Assembly: GCA_964359615.1 (NCBI GenBank)
Contig: CAYHTX010000001.1
Coordinates: forward strand, 1-25,808
Reading direction: 5' to 3'
DNA from: an uncultured Gammaproteobacteria bacterium
GTDB taxonomy: Bacteria; Patescibacteriota; Patescibacteriia; Magasanikbacterales; UBA922
DNA: 25,808 bases
Shown: piece by piece, positions 1,234 through 11,639 of the stretch
Position numbering within the stretch: position 1 is the first letter of the stretch
Layout: each line of letters starts with the position of its first letter
The notes under the pieces: generated by a model
What the model was told of the DNA's origin: nothing
What the model saw: only the letters and a program-made list of their open reading frames with translations
The model's database searches: none
Made by a program: the position numbers and the translations under genes

Positions 1234-1440
1234 TTATTTTTTATCTCCGTGTCCGCCATGATCCTCCCCATGTCCCTTGTGCATAAAGATATGCATGAGT
1301 GGACACAGGAGGAGAAGCAGATACGGCGCCACTGAAAAGACATGCGAGCGGTGGTCGCGCAACAGGAACACCAGGCCCGCGATGCCGATCACGAAAACAA
1401 TCCACCAGGTTTTGGTTGAAAAAGTATTATCCTGTTCCAT
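1234..1440 (-). CDS. DUF2933-family small membrane protein (copper-cluster associated)
   Basis: 68 aa, two TM segments, family motif 'LLLLLCPLMHIFMH' and a His/Gly tail (KGHGEDHGGHG). Confidence 0.85.
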   Translation of the reverse strand: MEQDNTFSTKTWWIVFVIGIAGLVFLLRDHRSHVFSVAPYLLLLLCPLMHIFMHKGHGEDHGGHGDKK

Positions 1441-1451
1441 ATAATTTTTGG

Positions 1452-1718
1452 TTACTTTGTTGCCCCCTCGAGACTGGCATTATGCATCCAGGCAATATAC
1501 GCGCCGGCGATGCCAGACCAGAACGCGATCGAAATGCCGCCGATGATCCAGCTCCCAAATCCGACCCAGGTGAAACCCGGCAGAAGTTCAAAAAGCGAGT
1601 GGTGGAGTTCGGCCATACTGCCCGAAAGCGTTGTCCCGTAGAGAAGACACACGGTGTACGCGATTTCGCCGCCGAGCACGCATAGCCCAGCGTATTTTTT
1701 GATAGATAATTTTCCCAT
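1452..1718 (-). CDS. DUF5676-like small membrane protein
   Basis: Start trimmed to ATG 1718 (MGKLSIKK), 88 aa. Pattern 'CLLYG...LHHSLFELLPGFTW...W..G..IAF.SG..G.Y.A..HN' resembles DUF5676. Confidence 0.65.
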   Translation of the reverse strand: MGKLSIKKYAGLCVLGGEIAYTVCLLYGTTLSGSMAELHHSLFELLPGFTWVGFGSWIIGGISIAFWSGIAGAYIAWMHNASLEGATK

Positions 1719-1734
1719 ATAAAAGGAAGTCAGA

Positions 1735-2427
1735 TTAAATGAGATTCTTTTTCTTTTCCTCAAATTCCTGGTTGTTGATTTCACCTTTTGCGTATCGTTC
1801 CTTCAGGATATCGAGTGGCTTTTTTTCTACGCCACCGGCGCCCCGTGATTGATTCATAAGCCACCTTATGAGGAGGACGATGCCAAAGATAATGAGGCCC
1901 CACCAGAGGATCATCATAAGAGAACCAAGCCAGCTAAAACCGGTTAATCCAGTGTTCATCATATTGGTCGGGTTAGTCCACTGATTAAATCCACGAGAAG
2001 ACGGCCAGCCGCCGAACATCATGTTCATCATCGGCATAAAACCAATGCTCCCAGTGGGTATGACCGCCTCAGGATCGCAGCCGCTCAAGCGCTTACCCAT
2101 GACGACATGCATCTCTTCTTCACCCTCTTCACCCATCATCCGCTCCATCATGGTATTCATCGCTTCGTGCGAATCGCCGAGCATGGTCCCCATGTAGTAT
2201 TCACCAAGCGATCCAAAATCGTCATCCGACAATTTCTCGCACGTTGTTTCGTTTGCCCGAAGCGCTTCGGAAATAACTTTTCCCTCAGCCTCTTCTCGCG
2301 CGGTGTGGCCGTCAGCTTTGATCACGCTTCGATTCGTTCCCCCCATCATGCCCTGGGCCATCGCGGAGTCGGGAATCACGCCAAGCACAGCCAGACTTAT
2401 GAGCGCGACAAATAGCATGTTTTTCAT
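1735..2427 (-). CDS. Met-rich exported/membrane protein with C-terminal SHOCT domain
   Basis: Signal-peptide-like N-terminus, Met/His-rich middle, one TM helix, and C-terminal 'PLDILKERYAKGEINNQEFEEKKKNL' (SHOCT signature). Confidence 0.85.
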   Translation of the reverse strand: MKNMLFVALISLAVLGVIPDSAMAQGMMGGTNRSVIKADGHTAREEAEGKVISEALRANETTCEKLSDDDFGSLGEYYMGTMLGDSHEAMNTMMERMMGEEGEEEMHVVMGKRLSGCDPEAVIPTGSIGFMPMMNMMFGGWPSSRGFNQWTNPTNMMNTGLTGFSWLGSLMMILWWGLIIFGIVLLIRWLMNQSRGAGGVEKKPLDILKERYAKGEINNQEFEEKKKNLI

Positions 2428-2813
2428 ATTTGTTTTGCAAGATTAATGATTGAATGTACGATCGCATCAACTTCAGCCGGCTTATTTCCCAAATCGACCG
2501 TTGGGAAAAATTGCGTAAGCACAGTTGGCCGCATGCCGGAGATGACTGTTTGACCGCCCTCTGTATACACATTGATTTTACATGGCATACAAAGACCAAT
2601 TTTTGCGTCAGCCTCGAGAAACGCGCTCGCGTACTTGGCATTGCAAAATTCGATAATTTTGAACGGTCCGCGCGTAAATCCTTTCTCCGCCAGAGCCGCC
2701 TGCACATCGTGGACGTACAGCACACGCATTCCCGCCTTGGCAATTTCTTTCTCTACGGCTTCAACGGCGATGGCAAAATTTTTAGTTGTGGTCACGGTAT
2801 AGTCAAATTCCAT
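2424..2813 (-). CDS. DUF302 domain protein
   Basis: 129 aa with 'IIEFCNAKYA...IGLCMPCKINVY' motif. Strong SD AGGAGGTG at 2821-2828 (minus strand). 4-nt overlap with the next gene. Confidence 0.85.
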   Translation of the reverse strand: MEFDYTVTTTKNFAIAVEAVEKEIAKAGMRVLYVHDVQAALAEKGFTRGPFKIIEFCNAKYASAFLEADAKIGLCMPCKINVYTEGGQTVISGMRPTVLTQFFPTVDLGNKPAEVDAIVHSIINLAKQI

Positions 2814-2834: not shown

Positions 2835-4427
2835 TTATTGTACTTTAAATTCCAACATCATCCCGGCTTCCAGGTGTTCGCTAATATGGCAGTGCGCCAT
2901 CCAGCGGCCGGGATTGGTCATGTCAACCAGAACTTCCACCGTGTCGCCGGTTTGGATAAGGGTGGTATCTTTCCAGACGAGATTGTTATTTGGCACGCCA
3001 TTGGTTGATAGCACTAGGAAACGCTGCCCATGAAAGTGAATTGGGTGTTGCATCGGGTGCAAGGACTTCGGGTCATTAAAAATTTTGATCTTCACTTTGT
3101 CGCCAACCGCAAAATTCCAATCAATATCTTCATTGATGTTTCCGGTTTTATTGTCCTTCATTTGCCACACCAGTGTGTCTTTGGTCGAATTGGCGTTCAT
3201 CATGTCCATATCGTCTTCCCATTCGATCTTCTCCACCTCTCCCATGTTCATCATGGTGTCCGACATCGCGCTGCCACCATGCATCATGTGCATGCCGCTA
3301 CCCGCGCCCATCATTTGCTTCATTTGAATGCCAAGCGTAATGCTTTTGTCAGGCGTTTTGACAAAGTATTCCCGGTACGGATCAATGCTTGCAATCGTGT
3401 CTTTGTTTTCCCGGAGCGTCTGAAATGCTTTCACAAAAGAAATTTCTTTTTCTGTGTTCTCGGCGAATATGGAGCCGAGTTCATACGTTTTGTCTGGGGT
3501 TGAATGGATGAGCGTATATTCACCTTTGTCAGAAAAATAGACATCAACTATTGCCCGCTCTGATGGCCCGAGGAGAACCGAATCCACAAATGTCTCACGC
3601 TCGTATTTGCCATTGTCGCCACCGACCAGTTTCATTTGTGCATCCGTAATCCATACGTTGAAGACGCGCGTGTTGGCCGAGTTGGTGAAAACAAAGCGCA
3701 CGACATCGGATTTGTTCACTCGAAGCGTATAATCAGTCTCGCCATTCACAAGCATGACATTCCCAAACCGACCCATAAGGGCGTGCGTCGCGATATCTTT
3801 ATCAAATGGCGTTTGGCCATTTTCGAGATAGAGATCATCGAGAAAGAGGTATTCGGTGCGGTTCACAGGCGAGTAGTAATTCGGATCATCCGGCATAACG
3901 ACATAGTTTCCGTACATGCCCAACTCCTGCGCATAATCTTCGCGAATGTGCGGGTGGTACCAATAAACGCCCTCGTCCGGAAATTTTATTTTGTAGGTAA
4001 ATGATTCTCCCGACTTGATTTCCTTTTGCGTCACATCCGGCACGCCATCAAATTCATTGGCGAGCCGCACGCCGTGCGAGTGAATTGTGGTCGGTACGTC
4101 AATGTTATTCGTAAACTTCAATGTTATCTCTGCCCCCTTTGGCGCGCGGATAAGCGGCCCCGGGATCGAGCCATTGTAGGCGAGCATGCGAATCTCGCGG
4201 TTGCCAATGGTTTTTTTCACGGCCTCGGCCGTCATCTCGTAGGTGTCGCCGTCGTTGAGGTCAACAATCGGCATTGGTTTGGCTTCTGGGAGAGAAGCTG
4301 CGTCGGTTATTGCATTTTGCGTTCGTTTCACGTCCGAAAAGTCGTTTTGAGAGCGCAAGGCAAACAAAACAAGAACAATAATGAGGGCGAGGCAACAGAA
4401 AATTGTATAGAAAATTTTTTTGTTCAT
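2835..4427 (-). CDS. Multicopper oxidase (CueO/laccase-like)
   Basis: All four copper motifs are present: HSHG, WYHPH, HPIHFHG, HCHISEHLEAGMM (type-1 Cys/His/Met). Met-rich insert and N-terminal TM anchor. Confidence 0.95.
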   Translation of the reverse strand: MNKKIFYTIFCCLALIIVLVLFALRSQNDFSDVKRTQNAITDAASLPEAKPMPIVDLNDGDTYEMTAEAVKKTIGNREIRMLAYNGSIPGPLIRAPKGAEITLKFTNNIDVPTTIHSHGVRLANEFDGVPDVTQKEIKSGESFTYKIKFPDEGVYWYHPHIREDYAQELGMYGNYVVMPDDPNYYSPVNRTEYLFLDDLYLENGQTPFDKDIATHALMGRFGNVMLVNGETDYTLRVNKSDVVRFVFTNSANTRVFNVWITDAQMKLVGGDNGKYERETFVDSVLLGPSERAIVDVYFSDKGEYTLIHSTPDKTYELGSIFAENTEKEISFVKAFQTLRENKDTIASIDPYREYFVKTPDKSITLGIQMKQMMGAGSGMHMMHGGSAMSDTMMNMGEVEKIEWEDDMDMMNANSTKDTLVWQMKDNKTGNINEDIDWNFAVGDKVKIKIFNDPKSLHPMQHPIHFHGQRFLVLSTNGVPNNNLVWKDTTLIQTGDTVEVLVDMTNPGRWMAHCHISEHLEAGMMLEFKVQ

Positions 4428-4437
4428 ACCGGAATAA

Positions 4438-4710
4438 TTACCCGTCCTTTTTAGACAATGTATAAACTTTCATGACCTCCTTCACGGCCTTGCCATGCGC
4501 GCCGGATTTCATCTGCTCGACAACATGGGTATTCAGGTGATTTTCAAGCATCGCGTCCTCAAAGCTTGACACGGCTTTCTTGACCGCGCTCGCCTGGGTG
4601 ATGATATCCACGCAGTACTCGCCTTTCTCGACCATGTTCTGCAAGCCTCGAACCTGCCCCTCGATAATTTTGAGGCGCTTCAGGAGTTTTTTTTGCACGT
4701 TTGGTTTCAT
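4438..4710 (-). CDS. csoR: CsoR/RcnR-family metal-sensing transcriptional repressor
   Basis: 'RLKIIEGQVRGLQNMVEKGEYCVDIITQASAV...LENHLNTH'. Start set to ATG 4710 (MKPN) because ATG 4719 abuts the -10 box. Confidence 0.9.
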   Translation of the reverse strand: MKPNVQKKLLKRLKIIEGQVRGLQNMVEKGEYCVDIITQASAVKKAVSSFEDAMLENHLNTHVVEQMKSGAHGKAVKEVMKVYTLSKKDG

Positions 4711-4719
4711 ATATATCAT

Positions 4720-4742
4720 AGTATACCCCCCTAGGGTATACT
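4720..4742. promoter_or_regulatory. CsoR-type operator
   Basis: Palindrome AGTATACCC-CCCTA-GGGTATACT (9-bp arms with a G/C tract). It matches the known ATACC..G-tract..GGTAT form of Firmicutes CsoR operators and covers the promoter spacer and -10. Confidence 0.85.
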
Positions 4743-4748
4743 AGTCAA
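4720..4748 (-). promoter_or_regulatory. Sigma70-type promoter of the csoR operon
   Basis: Minus strand TTGACT (4748-4743), 17-nt spacer, TATACT (4725-4720). Confidence 0.85.
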
Positions 4749-4794
4749 TCAATCATAGCTGTGTATAGCTGCTATGTGATTTCTATTTCTTCCA

Positions 4795-5316
4795 TTACTG
4801 CCCAGGCACATGGTGATCAACGCCGATGTAGGCGTCAATGAATTGTTTGATCACCTCGGCATCAATGGTTTGAAGTTTCAGCATCCGCGTCCAGGCAGTG
4901 AGGATAATGGGGAAGTCCATGCCTGAATATGGTTCCAATATGATGCTTTTTCCTTTGATATAGTATGGATTCACTATTTCTTCCAGTGCTTGAATCGTGC
5001 TCGATGTCACTTGCACCGGATCATAATGGACAATGACTCCGCCGTCTTCCAGATTGTGCACCTGCATTTCGTCGGGTATTTGCGTATCGGTAACGCCCCA
5101 GGACGCTTTCACACCGTGCGGACCGGAGGTCGGCGGTTTGGAGTTGTATAATTCGTGCGAGTCGGTCAGCGACGTCAGGTGACGATTGCCTTGGTTGGCA
5201 ACTGCGTCACCCGGTCGCGGGCGGGTGACAGACCATACGATGGGGCCGACAATGAGCGCCGTGGGTATGATGATGATCAGAAACCCGGTCAATTTTTTGC
5301 TTGAAGGCTGTTTCAT
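4795..5316 (-). CDS. DUF3105 domain membrane-anchored protein
   Basis: N-terminal TM, 'YNSKPPTSGPH', 'VHNLEDGGVIVHY', 'IILTAWTR'. Confidence 0.85.
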   Translation of the reverse strand: MKQPSSKKLTGFLIIIIPTALIVGPIVWSVTRPRPGDAVANQGNRHLTSLTDSHELYNSKPPTSGPHGVKASWGVTDTQIPDEMQVHNLEDGGVIVHYDPVQVTSSTIQALEEIVNPYYIKGKSIILEPYSGMDFPIILTAWTRMLKLQTIDAEVIKQFIDAYIGVDHHVPGQ

Positions 5317-5327
5317 AGAGAAAATCT

Positions 5328-6143
5328 TTAGCGCAGCGCCGCGTCAATCGTGGCCTTGATCTGCGCGTATGGGAGAGCGCCGGAGATAAGCTGCGCATTC
5401 CCGTCTTTGTCAATAAGAAACGACCCGGGCGTGCCATTGACGCCCGCGGCTGCGCCGCCGTTCATGTCAGCGGCAACGCGCGCCGCGTATTTGCCGCTGT
5501 CCAAACAATTTTTGAATTTGCTTTCACTTAGACCAAGTTCTTTGGCGAGTGGCACCAGCGCGTCAAGCGCAAAACCCGTGCCGTTTGCCGCGGTGCGCTC
5601 AAAGATGGCGTCAGTATACTTCCAAAAAGCATCATTGCCGCCGAGTTCAGCCGCGCATTCGGATGCCTCGGCCTCTTTTTGCGCATTGGCATGGAAGGAC
5701 AAGGGGAAATGGCGATACACCCATTTTACCTGTCCTTTATACTCATCCATCATCTGGAGCATGCTTGGGTGGAATCGCTTGCAGAACGGACATTCAAAAT
5801 CCGAGTATTCGATCCAGGTCAGTTCGGCATTTTTATCGCCACGCACATGATCCTCTTTCGTGACTGGCGGCACAGCCCCGGTCGGCGCCTGAGTCGGCGG
5901 AATTTGAGCTGCCGCGAGCGGCCGAGCTCCAGCATTTGCTCCGTCCGAAACGGCTTTGGCCGTGATGCCGCCTTTTAACACGATTGAAAGGAGAACAAAA
6001 AAGCCAATGGTGCAAAGAACAAGCACCGCGCCAATCATACCAAGCCCGAACACCATTTTGGGCGGCAATTGATTGAAAACACTTTTGTTATTGACAACTG
6101 GATCGAAATCAGGGTCATTGAGACGTGTTGTTTGATTGTCCAT
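5328..6143 (-). CDS. DsbA/BdbD-like thiol-disulfide oxidoreductase, membrane anchored
   Basis: 'EYSDFECPFCKRFH', 'YRHFPLSFH', 'GVNGTPGSF' (cis-Pro loop), one TM helix. Confidence 0.9.
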   Translation of the reverse strand: MDNQTTRLNDPDFDPVVNNKSVFNQLPPKMVFGLGMIGAVLVLCTIGFFVLLSIVLKGGITAKAVSDGANAGARPLAAAQIPPTQAPTGAVPPVTKEDHVRGDKNAELTWIEYSDFECPFCKRFHPSMLQMMDEYKGQVKWVYRHFPLSFHANAQKEAEASECAAELGGNDAFWKYTDAIFERTAANGTGFALDALVPLAKELGLSESKFKNCLDSGKYAARVAADMNGGAAAGVNGTPGSFLIDKDGNAQLISGALPYAQIKATIDAALR

Positions 6144-6212
6144 ACGATTTTTAAGAAAATAGTGAATAGAGATGAAGGTATAGAGATAAGTTCTACATAG
6201 GCAAAAGAACGA

Positions 6213-8555
6213 TTACAATTCCGCGCTAATGCGCGCGAAGGCGATAAAGAGCAAAGTAAACACGGCAGTCATGATAACTGGCGCGATGTCAGAGAGATAA
6301 TTTCTTTTGTCTGGCCGAAAGCCTTTGAGGAGAAGCGAGTTAGAGACGACCGACACTGAACTAAACGCCATGGCGAGTCCGGCGAGTTCCGGCCGAAGCA
6401 CAATGCCAAGGCCGATCAGCATACGCGCCGCGATCGGGATGCCGACCACGTTGTAGAACAGGGCAAAAAACATGTTCTGTTTTATTTTCCCCATAGTCTC
6501 CCGGCTCAACTGTATGGCGTGGACCACATCGCGGAGGTCATTCTTCACGAGCACAATGTCTCCAGCCTCCATAGCGACATCGGTGCCGCCGCCCATGGCA
6601 ATGCCGACGTCGGCCTGTGCCAGTGCCGGACTGTCGTTGATGCCATCGCCGACCATGGCGACCCGCATCCCCTTTTCCTGCAATTTTTTGACTTCTTTTT
6701 CTTTATCCTGCGGGAGCACATCGGCGAGCACGTTCGTGATGCCAACTTCTTTCGCAATCGCGGCTGCGGTTCGGGCATTGTCGCCGGTGATCATGTAGGT
6801 CGCGATGCCCATCTGTTGGAGCGATTTGACCGCGGCGACGCTAGTATCTTTCAGCGTATCGGCGACTGCGATGATGCCGAGGATATTTTTATCGTCAGAG
6901 AGAATTACGGCTGTTTTTCCGGCGTCCTCCAGTTTCCGCAACTGTTCTTCAACCGGTGTTGTGTCAAATCCTTCGCGCGCCATCAGTTTCCGGTTGCCAA
7001 GCGCATATTTTTGTCCATCAATCATTCCCTCAACTCCATGCCCTGGCACCGCCTGAAATCCAACGACTGGCAGGAGCGTAAGTCCGTCAGTTTTCGCTCG
7101 CTTCACAATCGCCTCGGCCAGCGGATGCTCTGACGTATTTTCAAGCGATGCGGTGATTTGTAAAAAATTCAACTGGTTTCTATTTTCTATCACATCGGTC
7201 ACTTCCGGCTCACCCTTCGTGAGCGTTCCGGTCTTGTCAAAGACGACGGCCTGAATTTTCGCCGTCGCCTCGAGCGGTTCGCCGCCTTTAATCAGTATCC
7301 CGTATTCGGCGCCCTTGCCGGTGCCAACCATGACTGCCGTCGGCGTGCCGAGGCCCAGGGCGCAGGGGCAGGCAATCACAATAACGGAAACAAATGCCAG
7401 AAGCGCAAAGGTCACTGTCTCACCCAAAACAAAGTACCAGATGAGGAAGGTAAGAATGGCAATACCGATGACCGCTGGCACGAACCAGGCCGAGATCCGA
7501 TCCGCGTACGCTTGGATCGGCGCTTTGGAGCCTTGCGCGTCTTCGACGAGACGGATGATTTGCGCGAGCATGGTATCGGCGCCGACCTTGGTCGCCCGGA
7601 ATTCAAAACTACCGTTTTTGTTGATCGTGGCGCCAACCACTGTGTCACCAGTCTTTTTTTCAACCGGAATGCTTTCGCCCGTCACCATTGATTCATCAAC
7701 TGCGGATAAGCCGTCAGTTACTATTCCGTCAACCGGAATTTTTTCACCCGGCCGCACAATCACAACGTCGCCCGCCACGACTTCTTCGACCGGAATATCA
7801 GTTGTGGTATAGCCGCGGCGCACGCGAGCAATTTTTGCCTGGAGTCCCATCAGTTTTCGGATCGCATCACTCGTCTGCCCCTTGGCGCGCGCCTCGAGCC
7901 ACTTGCCCATGAGGACAAAGGTGATAAGAAAGACGCCGATCTCAAAGTAGAGATTCGGAATTTTCTCTCCCATCGGCGCTATGATTGATCCCGTGAACAG
8001 CGCATAACTGATGAATTCATAGAGACTGTAGAAGAAGGCGGTCGAGGTGCCGATCGCGATCAGACTGTCCATGTTGAACGTCTTCATCTTGAGACTCGAC
8101 CACATCCCGCGGTAGAATCCGGCGCCGAGAATGAATTGCACAGGGAGCGCGAAAAGGAGCGACGCAAGTCCCATGCGCGGCATGATGGATTCTCGAAACG
8201 GCAGCACCGTTAAAAAATCCAACAGCATAAAATACACAAGCGGGATGCTAAAGACAACGCCGGCTAAAAATTTATTCCGGTACGCCAAAATTTCGATAGT
8301 CCGGCGTTTGCGTTCTGCTTCACGGTCTTTCTCATCGGCAATTTCCGCTCTGTATCCTGCCGCTTTGACCGCCTCTTTAATTTTTTCTTCATCCGCGAGG
8401 CTCGCATCATACACGACCCGCGCCTTTTCAGCGCTGACATTCACGTTCACTTCTTTGACGCCTGCCACTTTTTTTACTTTGCGCTCGATAAGCGCGGCGC
8501 ATGAGGCGCAGTGCATGCCATAGATGTTAAATTGTGCACGAGTGTCGGCGGTCAT
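6213..8555 (-). CDS. copA: Cu(I)-translocating P1B-1 ATPase
   Basis: N-terminal GMHCASC HMA, TGES, CPC (IACPCAL), [25 protein letters not shown] and MAFSSVSV metal-site motifs. Confidence 0.95.
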
Positions 8556-8761
8556 ACTTTTTGAACGCGATAATTGTCGAGCGCCTGAACTTCTTCAGTG
8601 AATTTGGCAAAATCAAAGGTTTCATCATGTTCGATCACTCCTTCACCAGTCGCCGCATTCACGGTGCATGATGCTACCCCGGGCAATTCACTCGCCACGT
8701 CTTCAATGAGCGTTTTACATGAAGCACAGTGCATGCCGGTGATTTTTATATTCGTTTGCAT
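8552..8761 (-). CDS. copZ: Copper chaperone, single HMA domain
   Basis: 69 aa, GMHCASC motif, 4-nt overlap with the copA start. Confidence 0.85.
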
Positions 8762-8817: not shown

Positions 8818-10449
8818 TTACGCTGATGACAACACGGTGAAACTGCCGCGCACCATGCCCATGGAACAGCTAAACTGCACCTCGCCCGATTTTTGCGGCG
8901 TAAAGGCAATGATATTTTTCCCAGGTTTGAGGAGTTGTTGAATGCCAAGTTCGCGCGAAACCATGACACTGGTACAGCCGGTGGCGTTGTCGCCGTCAAT
9001 TTCCCAGCGCACCGGAACGCCAACTTGAAGCGTAAAATGATTCGGCTCGTAGCCGGCGTAACCAATGCCCATGCTGATCACTTGCGTATTGCCGTCCATG
9101 ATGATTTTTTCGCTTTCAGATCCGCCGGACGCGATCGTCGGCGCAGTACCGAATGACGGAAACGAGACCGGATATCCGGCAATGGCGAGTCCGTTTTGGA
9201 TATTCCAGAGGCCGAGAATAATGACGAGCGCGCCGGAAAATTGCAGAAAAAATGTTCCGGCTTTGCCTTTGAGCGAACTCGACGCCAGTCCGAGCGCGAC
9301 CAGCGCCGGCGCTGTGCCAAGCGCGAATGCGAGCATGGTCATGGCCCCGGTCGTGAAACTCCCGGCCGTAAGAGCATAGAGTTGCAAGGCCTGGGTAAAT
9401 CCGCAGGGCAGGAAAAACGTCGCGGCGCCAAGTCCGAATGACGCGAGCGGATGATCGTGATGCTCGGCATCCATGATGCGGTGGGAGAGCCATTTTGGCA
9501 GGCGCGGGAGGAGTGATTTCATCCAGCCCGGCGCAATTCCCAAAATATCCAACCCCATAATGAGCATAAACACTGCCGCGGCGATGGTGATAAGCGCAGT
9601 CACCAGCGGAGACGGGGTAAGGAGCGCGCCGACCACGCCGAGAAGCCCGCCGAGGATCGTGTACCCGGCCACGCGCCCGGCGATAAAGAGCATGACAGGC
9701 CGGAGTCGCGCTACCCGGCCAGCCGCCGGATACCGCTCATTGAATTTGGCCGCGGCCGAGAGCAGGAGTCCGCCGGTCACCGCAATGCACGAAGAACTGG
9801 CGGCCACGAGTCCGACCAGAAAAACCGCGCCAAAACTGGTGGCGGCGCCCACAGCGAAGCTGGTTTTGAGAAGCCCGAGCGCGGAAAACAATTTTCCGAT
9901 GAGGAGAACCAGCGCGAAGAGGCCGACGAGCCGCCACAGCGACGGCCGGATTGCTCGAGCCATCAGACGTTCCGCTGCCGCACCCTTGTTTGTTTTCTTT
10001 CGAACGCGATACTTGTCATCGCCAAGTGCGGCCTGGAGTTCCGCGAGTGTTGGCACGCTGCCCTCGATCATGAGTTCGGCCGTGCCGGTTCCGGCATTCA
10101 CATTCACTTTTTGAATCCCAGGCAATTTTTTCCATTTTCGCTCAACCGTAATCTCACAGCTCCGGCAGGTCATGCCGTCGATCCCAACGCTCATCGTGGC
10201 GCAGGACGGCGTGGGTGACGCCGGAATCGGCTCGAGATAAAAGCCGTGCCGCTGAAGATCATCGCTTATTTTTTTGAGATCAAGCGGCGTGGCGCTCACG
10301 ATTCGCATGAGCCGCTTGCCGAGATTCACGTCCACCCGCTCGATACCCGGGATTGGCGCGAGGAGTGAACGCAATCGCTGCTCGGCCGCGGCGTCCGTAA
10401 GCGCCGCAACCGAACATTTATAGATGCAAGGTTCAGATGATTGATTCAT
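8818..10449 (-). CDS. HMA + DsbD_2/TauE-SafE-like membrane domain + C-terminal cupredoxin-like fusion protein
   Basis: A degenerate HMA-like domain, then GMTCRSC HMA, then a multi-TM core with 'ASSSCIAVTGG' and 'FLPCGFTQ' cysteines, then C-terminal 'GYEPNHFTLQVGVPVRW...GC...FSCSMGM'. Confidence 0.85.
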   Translation of the reverse strand: MNQSSEPCIYKCSVAALTDAAAEQRLRSLLAPIPGIERVDVNLGKRLMRIVSATPLDLKKISDDLQRHGFYLEPIPASPTPSCATMSVGIDGMTCRSCEITVERKWKKLPGIQKVNVNAGTGTAELMIEGSVPTLAELQAALGDDKYRVRKKTNKGAAAERLMARAIRPSLWRLVGLFALVLLIGKLFSALGLLKTSFAVGAATSFGAVFLVGLVAASSSCIAVTGGLLLSAAAKFNERYPAAGRVARLRPVMLFIAGRVAGYTILGGLLGVVGALLTPSPLVTALITIAAAVFMLIMGLDILGIAPGWMKSLLPRLPKWLSHRIMDAEHHDHPLASFGLGAATFFLPCGFTQALQLYALTAGSFTTGAMTMLAFALGTAPALVALGLASSSLKGKAGTFFLQFSGALVIILGLWNIQNGLAIAGYPVSFPSFGTAPTIASGGSESEKIIMDGNTQVISMGIGYAGYEPNHFTLQVGVPVRWEIDGDNATGCTSVMVSRELGIQQLLKPGKNIIAFTPQKSGEVQFSCSMGMVRGSFTVLSSA

Positions 10450-10473
10450 AATAATTCATTTTCAGTTATTAAC

Positions 10474-10534
10474 AAAAAAGCCTCATACCCACAAACGCTG
10501 CTTCCATCAAAGAGAAAACAGCCGGGTATTAGGC
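10474..10534 (-). terminator. Terminator-like hairpin + U-tract overlapping the stop codon of the upstream ORF (candidate attenuator)
   Basis: Minus strand GCCTAATACCC (10534-10524) pairs with GGGTATGAGGC (10490-10480) at 10/11 positions. Inner stem GCTGTTTTC/GGAAGCAGC (9 bp, 2 G-U) with an 8-nt loop, followed by TTTTTT (10479-10474). Confidence 0.65.
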
Positions 10535-10954
10535 GTACAATTTTGGCTGAAGGATACCGTCTGAAAAAAGCGGTAAAAGATAATTGTAGCGTCTCGCATC
10601 GCGCCAGCCTCTCGCGTAAAACAAAAACCGGCTGACCGCTCGAGGCATCGCAGACAAATGATTGAACACCACAAACACAACAACCGCCGCAAGGATAATC
10701 AAAATCCAGCCGCTGCCATTGACGGCAAGCGTCGCCGCGATCATGCTCTGCCAGACAGCCACGTGCTCACTCAAGTCCATCCCGCAATTCTGCCCCGGAA
10801 TGCAGTCAGGTGTCATGTGGTGCGACCCAGTCATATTCATGCGGCTCTGCATGATCGGGTTGGCGCAGTCGAATATGCCCGCATAGACGAGCGTCGCAAA
10901 TGCGAGGAGCGTTAAAGTGCTGAGGATGAAGGATGAATGTTTTGCCCGATTCAT
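10529..10954 (-). CDS. Hypothetical Cys/His/Met-rich membrane protein heading the copA unit (candidate leader/sensor)
   Basis: 141 aa from ATG 10954: hydrophobic N-terminus, 'DCANPIMQSRMNMTGSHHMTPDCIPGQNCGMDLSEH', a TM helix, and C-terminal 'LFSDGILQPKLYA'. Confidence 0.7.
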   Translation of the reverse strand: MNRAKHSSFILSTLTLLAFATLVYAGIFDCANPIMQSRMNMTGSHHMTPDCIPGQNCGMDLSEHVAVWQSMIAATLAVNGSGWILIILAAVVVFVVFNHLSAMPRAVSRFLFYARGWRDARRYNYLLPLFSDGILQPKLYA

Positions 10955-10982: not shown

Positions 10983-11010
10983 AGTATAGCGCAGTCCATG
11001 AAAAAGGCAA
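10983..11010 (-). promoter_or_regulatory. Putative sigma70 promoter for the leader/copA unit
   Basis: Minus strand TTGCCT (11010-11005), 16-nt spacer, TATACT (10988-10983), about 30 nt upstream of ATG 10954. Confidence 0.55.
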
Positions 11011-11341
11011 GTACCGGGTATTCCACATAGAGTCATCCTGTCACTTTCATATCGTTGTCATATATATAGTATACGCACACGATGATACGACATCCGCGGA
11101 GGGAAGAGAAAAAAACACGCGCATTATATCAACGACCCGGAAACAAACAGACTGAGGAAGATCCCGGCATCTACTCTCGTCCATTTCATGCTGATGAAAT
11201 AAATTTTTCGCACCGCTTCTCGCGGCAGCACGAAAAGTTATGCACAGCTCGACCCTTGAAAGTATTCCATTTGCAAAAAATATGCTTTATACTATCTTCA
11301 GGGTCGATAGTCCTGACAAAAAAAATATTTTGAAGGACAAA

Positions 11342-11484: not shown

Positions 11485-11499
11485 GAGGAGGTGCACAAT

Positions 11500-11601
11500 A
11501 TGCCAAAGAAACGCAAAGCCGCAAAGAAGAAAGGCGGCAAACGGAAAGCCGCCAAGCGCAAAGGCGGAAAGAAGAGAAAAGGTGGTAAGAAGAAAAGATA
11601 A
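11500..11601 (+). CDS. 33-aa Lys/Arg-rich histone-H1/protamine-like microprotein
   Basis: MPKKRKAAKKKGGKRKAAKRKGGKKRKGGKKKR*. Strong SD (AGGAGGTG) upstream and a terminator downstream. Below the ORF-track length cutoff. Confidence 0.8.
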   Translation: MPKKRKAAKKKGGKRKAAKRKGGKKRKGGKKKR

Positions 11602-11609
11602 ATTCTTCG

Positions 11610-11639
11610 AAAATTCCCCGGTGATACCGGGGGATTTTT
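11610..11639. terminator. Bidirectional intrinsic terminator
   Basis: AAAATTCCCCGGT-GAT-ACCGGGGGATTTT(T), between two convergent stops (11601 and 11643). Confidence 0.85.

Follow-up and report, generated by a model that had tools for sequence, protein, structure and literature searches.

The hairpin at 10480-10534 (minus strand), together with the U6 tract that follows it, is predicted to form an intrinsic (Rho-independent) terminator inside an operon, and the upstream gene's stop codon lies within its 5' arm. We interpret this arrangement as a candidate translation-sensitive attenuator that would be disabled by a ribosome at the stop codon of the small upstream ORF; the probability that the element both terminates and responds to translation in this manner is put at about one half. 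The window, i.e. the whole stretch of 25,808 nt that was analysed, belongs to a genome of ~1.1 Mb (159 contigs, 89.8% complete) whose relatives are CPR/Patescibacteria from groundwater, and the sequencing runs that contain the locus are of groundwater DNA, with no RNA run among those listed. The features of the locus are, in the direction of transcription:

10983-11010, minus strand: candidate promoter of the sigma-70 type, TTGCCT-16-TATACT, ahead of the small ORF (consensus match only)
10529-10954, minus strand: 141-aa ORF for a two-helix membrane protein (ATG at 10954, TAA at 10531-10529)
10480-10534, minus strand: two-tier terminator-type hairpin of 55 nt (fold, and conservation in orthologous loci)
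10524-10534, minus strand: 5' arm of the outer stem, GCCTAATACCC, including the last sense codon GCC and the TAA
10532-10534, minus strand: last sense codon GCC of the 141-aa ORF
10529-10531, minus strand: TAA stop of the 141-aa ORF, within the outer 5' arm
10497-10522, minus strand: inner hairpin, 9 bp with an 8-nt loop (fold)
10480-10490, minus strand: 3' arm of the outer stem, GGGTATGAGGC, adjoining the U-run without a gap
10474-10479, minus strand: U6 tract immediately 3' of the hairpin, after C10480
10450-10473, minus strand: A/T-rich spacer of exactly 24 nt, from the U-run to the ATG of the following gene (10449)
8818-10449, minus strand: HMA-HMA-DsbD_2-cupredoxin membrane protein of 543 aa, first gene after the hairpin (Pfam)
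2835-8761, minus strand: remaining same-strand string of copper/redox genes, CopZ to multicopper oxidase, made up of the following six
8552-8761, minus strand: CopZ (Pfam)
6213-8555, minus strand: CopA P-type (P1B) ATPase (Pfam)
5328-6143, minus strand: DsbA-like protein (Pfam)
4795-5316, minus strand: DUF3105 protein (Pfam)
4438-4719, minus strand: CsoR-type repressor (Pfam)
2835-4427, minus strand: multicopper oxidase (Pfam)

In the outer stem, GCCTAATACCC pairs with GGGTATGAGGC at 10 of 11 positions with one A.G mismatch, and an extra G.U pair (10523/10491) lies beyond it. The inner stem joins GCTGTTTTC (10522-10514) to GGAAGCAGC (10505-10497) over 9 bp, a 5-nt bulge is located on the 3' side of the two-tier hairpin, and the stem base consists of the pairs G-C, C-G and C-G. 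Folding of a 65-nt stretch gave a minimum free energy of -27.4 kcal/mol, compared with a mean of -14.4 (sd 2.7) for shuffled sequences (z -4.75); none of 200 shuffles was as stable, and the minimum free energy structure is identical with the centroid. The earlier note, made from the letters of the window, had described a hairpin of two tiers with the stop in its 5' arm, a U6 tract and 24 nt to the next ATG. Its coordinates agree with ours, and the folding that it called for shows the structure to be stable and non-random.

A stable stem-loop closed by G+C pairs and a U-run directly 3' of it are both present, as in intrinsic terminators. What is missing is the compact single hairpin typical of this genome, with a stem of 8-12 bp and a loop of 3-6 nt. 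The hairpin did not appear in a simple terminator scan because the scan takes only single stems with loops of 3-8 nt. As a baseline we used the compact, well-paired terminator-like hairpins behind ~1000 crude ORFs, a subset from which long weak hairpins reaching into coding sequence were left out; most of these begin 10-26 nt past the stop and few overlap it. Canonical terminators of the genome span 20-30 nt, compared with 55 nt for the hairpin of the window, which is unusual among them in both length and position. No family was matched by Rfam anywhere in the window. In none of 41 genomes of this order (the window's own plus 40 relatives; 34 of the 41 are of high quality) did a search detect the Rho RNA-binding domain (PF07497).

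The upstream ORF, called a leader ORF in the earlier note, is not a short leader: it encodes a conserved membrane protein of 141 aa. A profile search collected 1124 clusters of representatives of this family, nearly all of 130-150 aa, with the match reaching the last residue. Among close relatives, 3 of 60 carry a homologue; in a phylum-wide sample of 401 genomes, 19 do. AlphaFold places helices at 3-28 and 61-121. The residues C51, C57, M59, H64 and W68 sit, as a putative metal motif, in an exported loop between the two hydrophobic helices and are conserved in 97%, 99%, 96%, 99% and 97%, respectively, of 143 sequences. The best-conserved block of the protein is, in the same 143 sequences, formed by its last 13 residues (3.0 bits per column, compared with 0.9-1.9 elsewhere). 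This tail, FSDGILQPKLYA in the window, runs up to the stop and is modelled as a low-confidence coil; in 75% of members its motif FSxGILxPK[LI]Y, which contains a single Pro, leaves 2-3 residues before the stop. From the end of the second hydrophobic helix to the C-terminus the median distance is 42 residues (IQR 39-44). Two distant family members (L075, L076) have a different tail, FENSPSFSYK-stop; in both, a perfect 11-bp hairpin holds the TAG stop, and a separate canonical terminator follows directly after it.

None of the family members matched an informative Pfam family. Membership in DUF2946 (PF11162) was considered and rejected at the HMM level, as 0 of 47 family members matched at E<=1; in the window's genome no DUF2946 protein was found at E<=10. 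In language-model feature space none of the Atlas clusters nearest to the family has a name, all of them being CPR proteins, and DUF2946 is the named cluster that comes closest (0.87), which we treat as a lead only.

Pfam searches bear out the string of copper/redox genes that had been read behind the hairpin, beginning with the HMA-DsbD_2-cupredoxin protein, CopZ and CopA and continuing with the DsbA-like, DUF3105, CsoR and multicopper oxidase genes. Across the loci examined, members of the small-protein family precede copper or thiol-redox genes, the downstream neighbours being HMA-DsbD_2-cupredoxin, DUF411, DsbA-like, DsbD_TM and rhodanese/DUF1573 genes. Three loci (L009, L029, L077) carry a DUF411 (CopG-like) gene after the small ORF instead of the HMA-DsbD gene, and in another (L016) a gene for a rhodanese + DUF1573 protein is found there.

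The distance between the small ORF and the 543-aa gene is 79 nt, and the 24-nt gap before the ATG could not accommodate a promoter plus a 5' UTR. The one promoter-like match in this region (10475-10448) has its -10 element overlapping the ATG at 10449 and is not conserved in the orthologous loci. A promoter of its own between the hairpin and the ATG was rejected, since initiation from this match would remove the conserved N-terminus and the match is absent from the orthologues. As judged from its consensus match, the promoter candidate at 10983-11010 probably starts the transcript in which the hairpin is reached. The earlier note had held that there was no good promoter or Shine-Dalgarno (SD) sequence before the 543-aa gene. 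Of these two statements that on the promoter is corrected to the extent that the match at 10475-10448 does exist. The other is empty in this genome: SD-like motifs (GGAG/GAGG/AGGA) precede 11% of crude ORF starts, compared with 13% of random coding windows. The organism seems barely to use SD pairing, and because such motifs are at background level genome-wide, a missing SD before the 543-aa gene is uninformative.

A CsoR operator of the classical type, TATACCCTAGGGGGGTATA, is located at 4722-4740 (minus strand), directly before the csoR ATG (4719). The csoR gene itself is placed within the same-strand copper string, between the DUF3105 and multicopper oxidase genes.

About ten syntenic CPR/Patescibacteria loci keep the hairpin design, with the stop at the same register and with covarying outer stems, so that the overlap of stop and hairpin, on whose conservation the earlier note had made its reading depend, is upheld. 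In L002/L005, L003/L006, L004/L013, L010, L012, L022, L024 and L028 the gene after the small ORF is an orthologue of the 543-aa gene, and the small proteins of these loci are 31-48% identical to that of the window. In each of these loci the outer stem starts 3 nt before the TAA. A two-tier hairpin whose outer 5' arm contains the stop and that is followed by T5-7 was seen in L002/5, L003/6, L004/13, L010, L012, L022 and L024, and L019 and L021 are similar in design. The distance from the U-run to the next ATG is 13-26 nt of A/T-rich sequence in most of the orthologous loci and about 55 nt in L024. The orthologous hairpins gave fold z-scores of -1.8 to -7.2, and their inner stems are unrelated in sequence between loci, with a hairpin present every time.

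The covariation check suggested in the earlier note came out in favour of the outer stem. In the nine-locus alignment 88.8% of its cells are paired, compared with 28-44% when the partner is slid, and 5 of its 11 pairs have changed on both sides. The stop-anchored positions +4, +5 and +7 swap among A-U, C-G, G-C and G-U in step with their partners. The covariation score is 0.27, compared with 0.12 in shuffles, and 0 of 500 shuffles reached it; this count refers to the outer stem only, as the inner stems could not be aligned by MAFFT. RNAalifold recovered only 7 outer pairs. The presence of G.U pairs points to a constraint on the RNA of the coding strand.

The tree of the small protein, whose deep branches are poorly resolved, places the terminator type in no fewer than four groups that each have their own support. 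Homologues of the HMA-DsbD-cupredoxin protein were found in 40 of 61 relatives, and the combination of small ORF and hairpin only in the closest of them (59-74% identical). A different gene lies upstream of the homologues in L087 and L088, which are 50% identical.

Across the family, the stop lies inside a stable domain of downstream pairing in 46% of 59 unique loci. By the same statistic, which is based on minimum free energy structures, the value is 20% for the genes of the window's genome and 15% for the other long ORFs of the same loci, giving odds ratios of 3.5-4.9 with p-values that are inflated by relatedness. Ungapped helices of at least 9 bp that hold the stop were found in 22% versus 2.6%; the former statistic was added because this one misses the hairpin of the window owing to its A.G mismatch. 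A second group of family loci (L016, L063, L029, L050, L078, L054, L070) has a stop-containing helix with no U-run behind it; here only 0-8 nt separate the end of the helix from the next start codon. The family thus shows, in two recurring forms, a stop region that pairs with a control point downstream; about half of the family loci are without a stop-containing helix. In L016 (2894-2965), L063, L054, L070 and L078 the stop codon pairs with bases before or overlapping the next ATG, and in L054 and L070 the long-range stop helix encloses an inner terminator-like hairpin.

According to the proposed mechanism, the outer stem must close for termination, as it adjoins the U-run. Its 5' arm is made up of the last sense codon, the stop and the 5 nt that follow, all within the stretch that would be covered by a ribosome at the last codons or at the stop, since a ribosome protects ~10-12 nt past its A site. 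With a ribosome at the stop, the outer stem would stay open as the polymerase crosses the U-run ~50 nt downstream, and transcription would proceed into the HMA-DsbD-cupredoxin gene, copZ and copA. The transcript would terminate if the small ORF were untranslated or the ribosome had already gone. Should the small protein act as a nascent-chain sensor of the CutF/CruR type, copper may influence how long the ribosome stays at the stop. We infer that the hairpin terminates and that ribosome occupancy sets the outcome, and favour this reading because the 5' arm lies under a stop-codon ribosome and because of the tR2 and rph-pyrE precedents (see below). When a stop codon was shifted in E. coli from 28 to 5 bp ahead of the tR2 terminator, termination fell from ~90% to <10%, an effect for which translation was required (PMC4824070).

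The ribosome-controlled attenuator advanced in the earlier note is thus retained in part. In its favour are the conserved and covarying hairpin around the stop, its unusual placement, the lack of promoter space, the failure to find Rho and the E. coli precedent. Attenuation of the classical leader-peptide kind and the argument from the SD are dropped: the presumed leader is a conserved 141-aa protein, the short leader peptide with regulatory codons that marks trp-type leaders is not there, and no antiterminator helix competing with the hairpin was seen in the minimum free energy or centroid structure of its 121-nt context.

Several points speak against attenuation. In B. subtilis the polymerase outruns the ribosomes in uncoupled, "runaway" transcription (PMC13323073). 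Were this also so in CPR, ribosomes would have no way of acting on the terminator while it is being transcribed. A long dwell in the absence of an arrest mechanism is made less likely by the stop context UAAU, which is efficient in E. coli. Stop-containing helices are seen in only about half of the family's loci, and efficient terminators are typically shorter than the two-tier hairpin. Moreover, CsoR, encoded in the string, could give copper control at the promoter, the hairpin then setting a fixed expression ratio.

This last possibility leads to a competing explanation, a constitutive and partly leaky terminator with fixed read-through that stops the majority of transcripts behind the small gene, keeps the ratio of small protein to operon high and stabilises their 3' end, the overlap with the stop reflecting compaction in a 1.1-Mb genome with no role for the ribosome. 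The hairpin carries all the sequence features of an intrinsic terminator, a CsoR gene is at hand for copper control, and the terminator between mccA and mccB comparably yields an abundant short and a minor long transcript (PMC4231749). Five members of the family (L014, L018, L020, L066, L090) have ordinary terminators just a few nt past the stop. Compaction, however, leaves the constant register of the stop unexplained in a genome whose other terminators lie at 10-26 nt, and a compact hairpin would save more space than the long two-tier one that has been kept. Nor does a leaky terminator account for the stop-holding helices that end at the next start in other family members. We regard this explanation as possible, at well below even odds.

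A post-transcriptional element, i.e. an RNase III-type processing or stability site, or translational coupling within ~30 nt of the next ATG with the U-run as an A/U-rich landing region for ribosomes, is unlikely for the window. The helix amounts to ~20 bp in total and SD use is at background level, both of which would suit such an element, and the group of loci in which the helix ends 0-8 nt before the ATG with no U-run (L016, L063, L029, L050, L054, L070, L078) does look like unmasking or coupling. In the window type, on the other hand, T5-7 follows at once after the 3' arm in 8 of 9 loci (the exception being L028), and the ATG lies 13-26 nt beyond the helix, so that the start codon is not masked by it. 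Still less can be said for a palindrome acting at the DNA level, as an operator for CsoR or another regulator, or for a chance inverted repeat without RNA function, which we consider very improbable. The arms do hold ATACCC and GGGTAT, the half-sites of the CsoR box TATACCCTAGGGGGGTATA upstream of csoR, and the 9-mer AATACCCGG also occurs beside the -35 element of the small ORF's promoter. The half-sites in the hairpin, however, are 35 nt apart instead of about 4-7 nt, and no site of the type ATACCC-N8-GGGTAT was found with 2 mismatches allowed; a CsoR operator within the hairpin was rejected on these two grounds. In addition, the arms of orthologous hairpins differ (TCACA/TGTGA, TAGC/GCTA) and yet pair, G.U pairs work only in RNA, and the inner hairpin is kept as structure and not as sequence.

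The attenuator reading was compared with known systems in which a translated upstream ORF controls the next gene. One of them is rph-pyrE of E. coli, in which, as is proposed here, a full-length protein gene serves as the "leader" and the distance from stop to hairpin decides read-through into the next gene (PMC2784333). In the window the stop of a full-length upstream gene is likewise at the hairpin and the next gene starts 24 nt past the U-run. The signal in rph-pyrE is UTP-dependent pausing of the polymerase and the stop is near the hairpin, whereas here it is inside the stem. The tR2 series provides direct experimental proof of the physical principle that a ribosome finishing translation at the stop conceals the 5' arm, so that the terminator no longer works (PMC4824070). 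It is a synthetic E. coli construct with the terminator a few bp past the stop, whereas here the terminator is around the stop.

Among copper-sensing ORFs, CruR (Bp2923) of Bordetella pertussis is a DUF2946 upstream ORF and likewise a small ORF with a Cys motif at the head of a copper-related operon; it works with a Rho-dependent terminator and a RAPP arrest motif, copper relieving the arrest and turning expression OFF (PMC9426467). In contrast, the terminator here is predicted to be of the intrinsic type, in a lineage in which no Rho was detected; there is just one Pro in the tail, and DUF2946 is not matched. Like the 141-aa protein, CutF of the Rhodobacter capsulatus cutFOG operon has <150 aa, begins with a signal for export or membrane insertion, carries a Cys motif in its exported part and ends in a conserved tail; an intergenic stem-loop of <100 nt precedes the copper gene, as here (PMC9973294; 10.1101/2025.02.05.636593). 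The requirement for the cutF gene in cis is counted as a further likeness to the small ORF, and so is its logic, in which copper causes stalling, the helix opens and the downstream gene is switched ON, as would apply here. The differences are that the CutF stem-loop masks the SD of cutO (translational control) and that stalling involves a PPP motif and EF-P, whereas the window has a terminator helix holding the stop, no poly-Pro and a second membrane helix. Measured by the hallmarks of CutF/CruR-type ORFs, the small protein has <150 aa with an N-terminal membrane segment (predicted helix 3-28), a conserved Cys/His motif in its exported part (a putative metal site) and a same-strand metal gene <100 nt downstream (79 nt) with an intergenic stem-loop; a DUF2946 match, or a PP/PPP or RAPP motif in the last 15 residues, was not found. 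The family is from CPR and is absent from the lists of CutF-like proteins, which demanded a PP motif. Lastly, arrest with the stop codon in the A site is known for upstream ORFs ending in NSP-stop, NAP-stop or DGMK-stop, which are small and membrane-anchored; as is proposed here, it is the conserved end of the protein that works at the stop and thereby controls the following gene (PMC10987492). Those arrest motifs differ in sequence from the FSxGILxPKLYx tail and regulate Sec/YidC genes by SD unmasking (PMC10987492).

In build the 141-aa protein resembles CutF and CruR: it exports a Cys/Met/His motif, has a helix that lies 42 residues from the end, and finishes at the stop with a conserved tail that is unstructured. 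By analogy, it may be the prototype of a CPR-wide family of nascent-chain copper sensors without a detectable DUF2946 match, in which one sensor would serve two RNA outputs; we offer this extension tentatively and consider it doubtful. The second membrane helix would be just out of the exit tunnel when the last codons are decoded, and copper bound to the exported Cys/Met/His loop would alter the force that pulls on the chain. The ribosome would then be kept at or beside the stop by the tail FSxGILxPKLYx, which is poor in proline. In the window's clade the stalled ribosome would keep an intrinsic terminator open, and in other clades it would unmask the next start codon. An arrest peptide that stalls with the stop codon in the A site is TnaC.

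To our knowledge, almost nothing is known of gene regulation in CPR/Patescibacteria, which are not growable alone and have few recognisable regulators. If the attenuator reading is true, the hairpin would be the first candidate attenuator for this group and the CutF/CruR principle would have been rebuilt with an intrinsic terminator, fitting a lineage in which Rho was not found. What would be new relative to the known copper-sensing leader switches is a CPR family with a conserved intrinsic-terminator form that holds the stop. The analysis also offers a lead on the function of an unnamed protein family with >1000 sequence clusters, whose conserved tail could add a new proline-poor arrest motif. 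Were the hairpin merely a leaky terminator, the finding would be an ordinary one, yet a clean case of a terminator structure conserved by covariation.

Further observations concern other parts of the window. The 9-mer AATACCCGG occurs twice on the minus strand, in the 5' arm of the hairpin (10522-10530) and at 11014-11022, directly upstream of the -35 element of the small ORF's putative promoter. This repeat may be due to chance or may mark a weak CsoR site at the promoter, ATACCC being a half-site of the CsoR box. A distal gene string at 1234-2813 (minus strand) encodes a DUF302 protein, a SHOCT-domain protein and small DUF5676 and DUF2933 proteins, families that are frequent in metal islands. 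The only plus-strand gene near the hairpin is a 36-aa ORF (11491-11601) that is extremely rich in Lys and Arg and is preceded by a strong SD, GAGGAGGTG, in a genome where SD motifs are otherwise not enriched. It is ended by a perfect hairpin (11609-11639), which doubles as the terminator of a convergent 442-aa gene.
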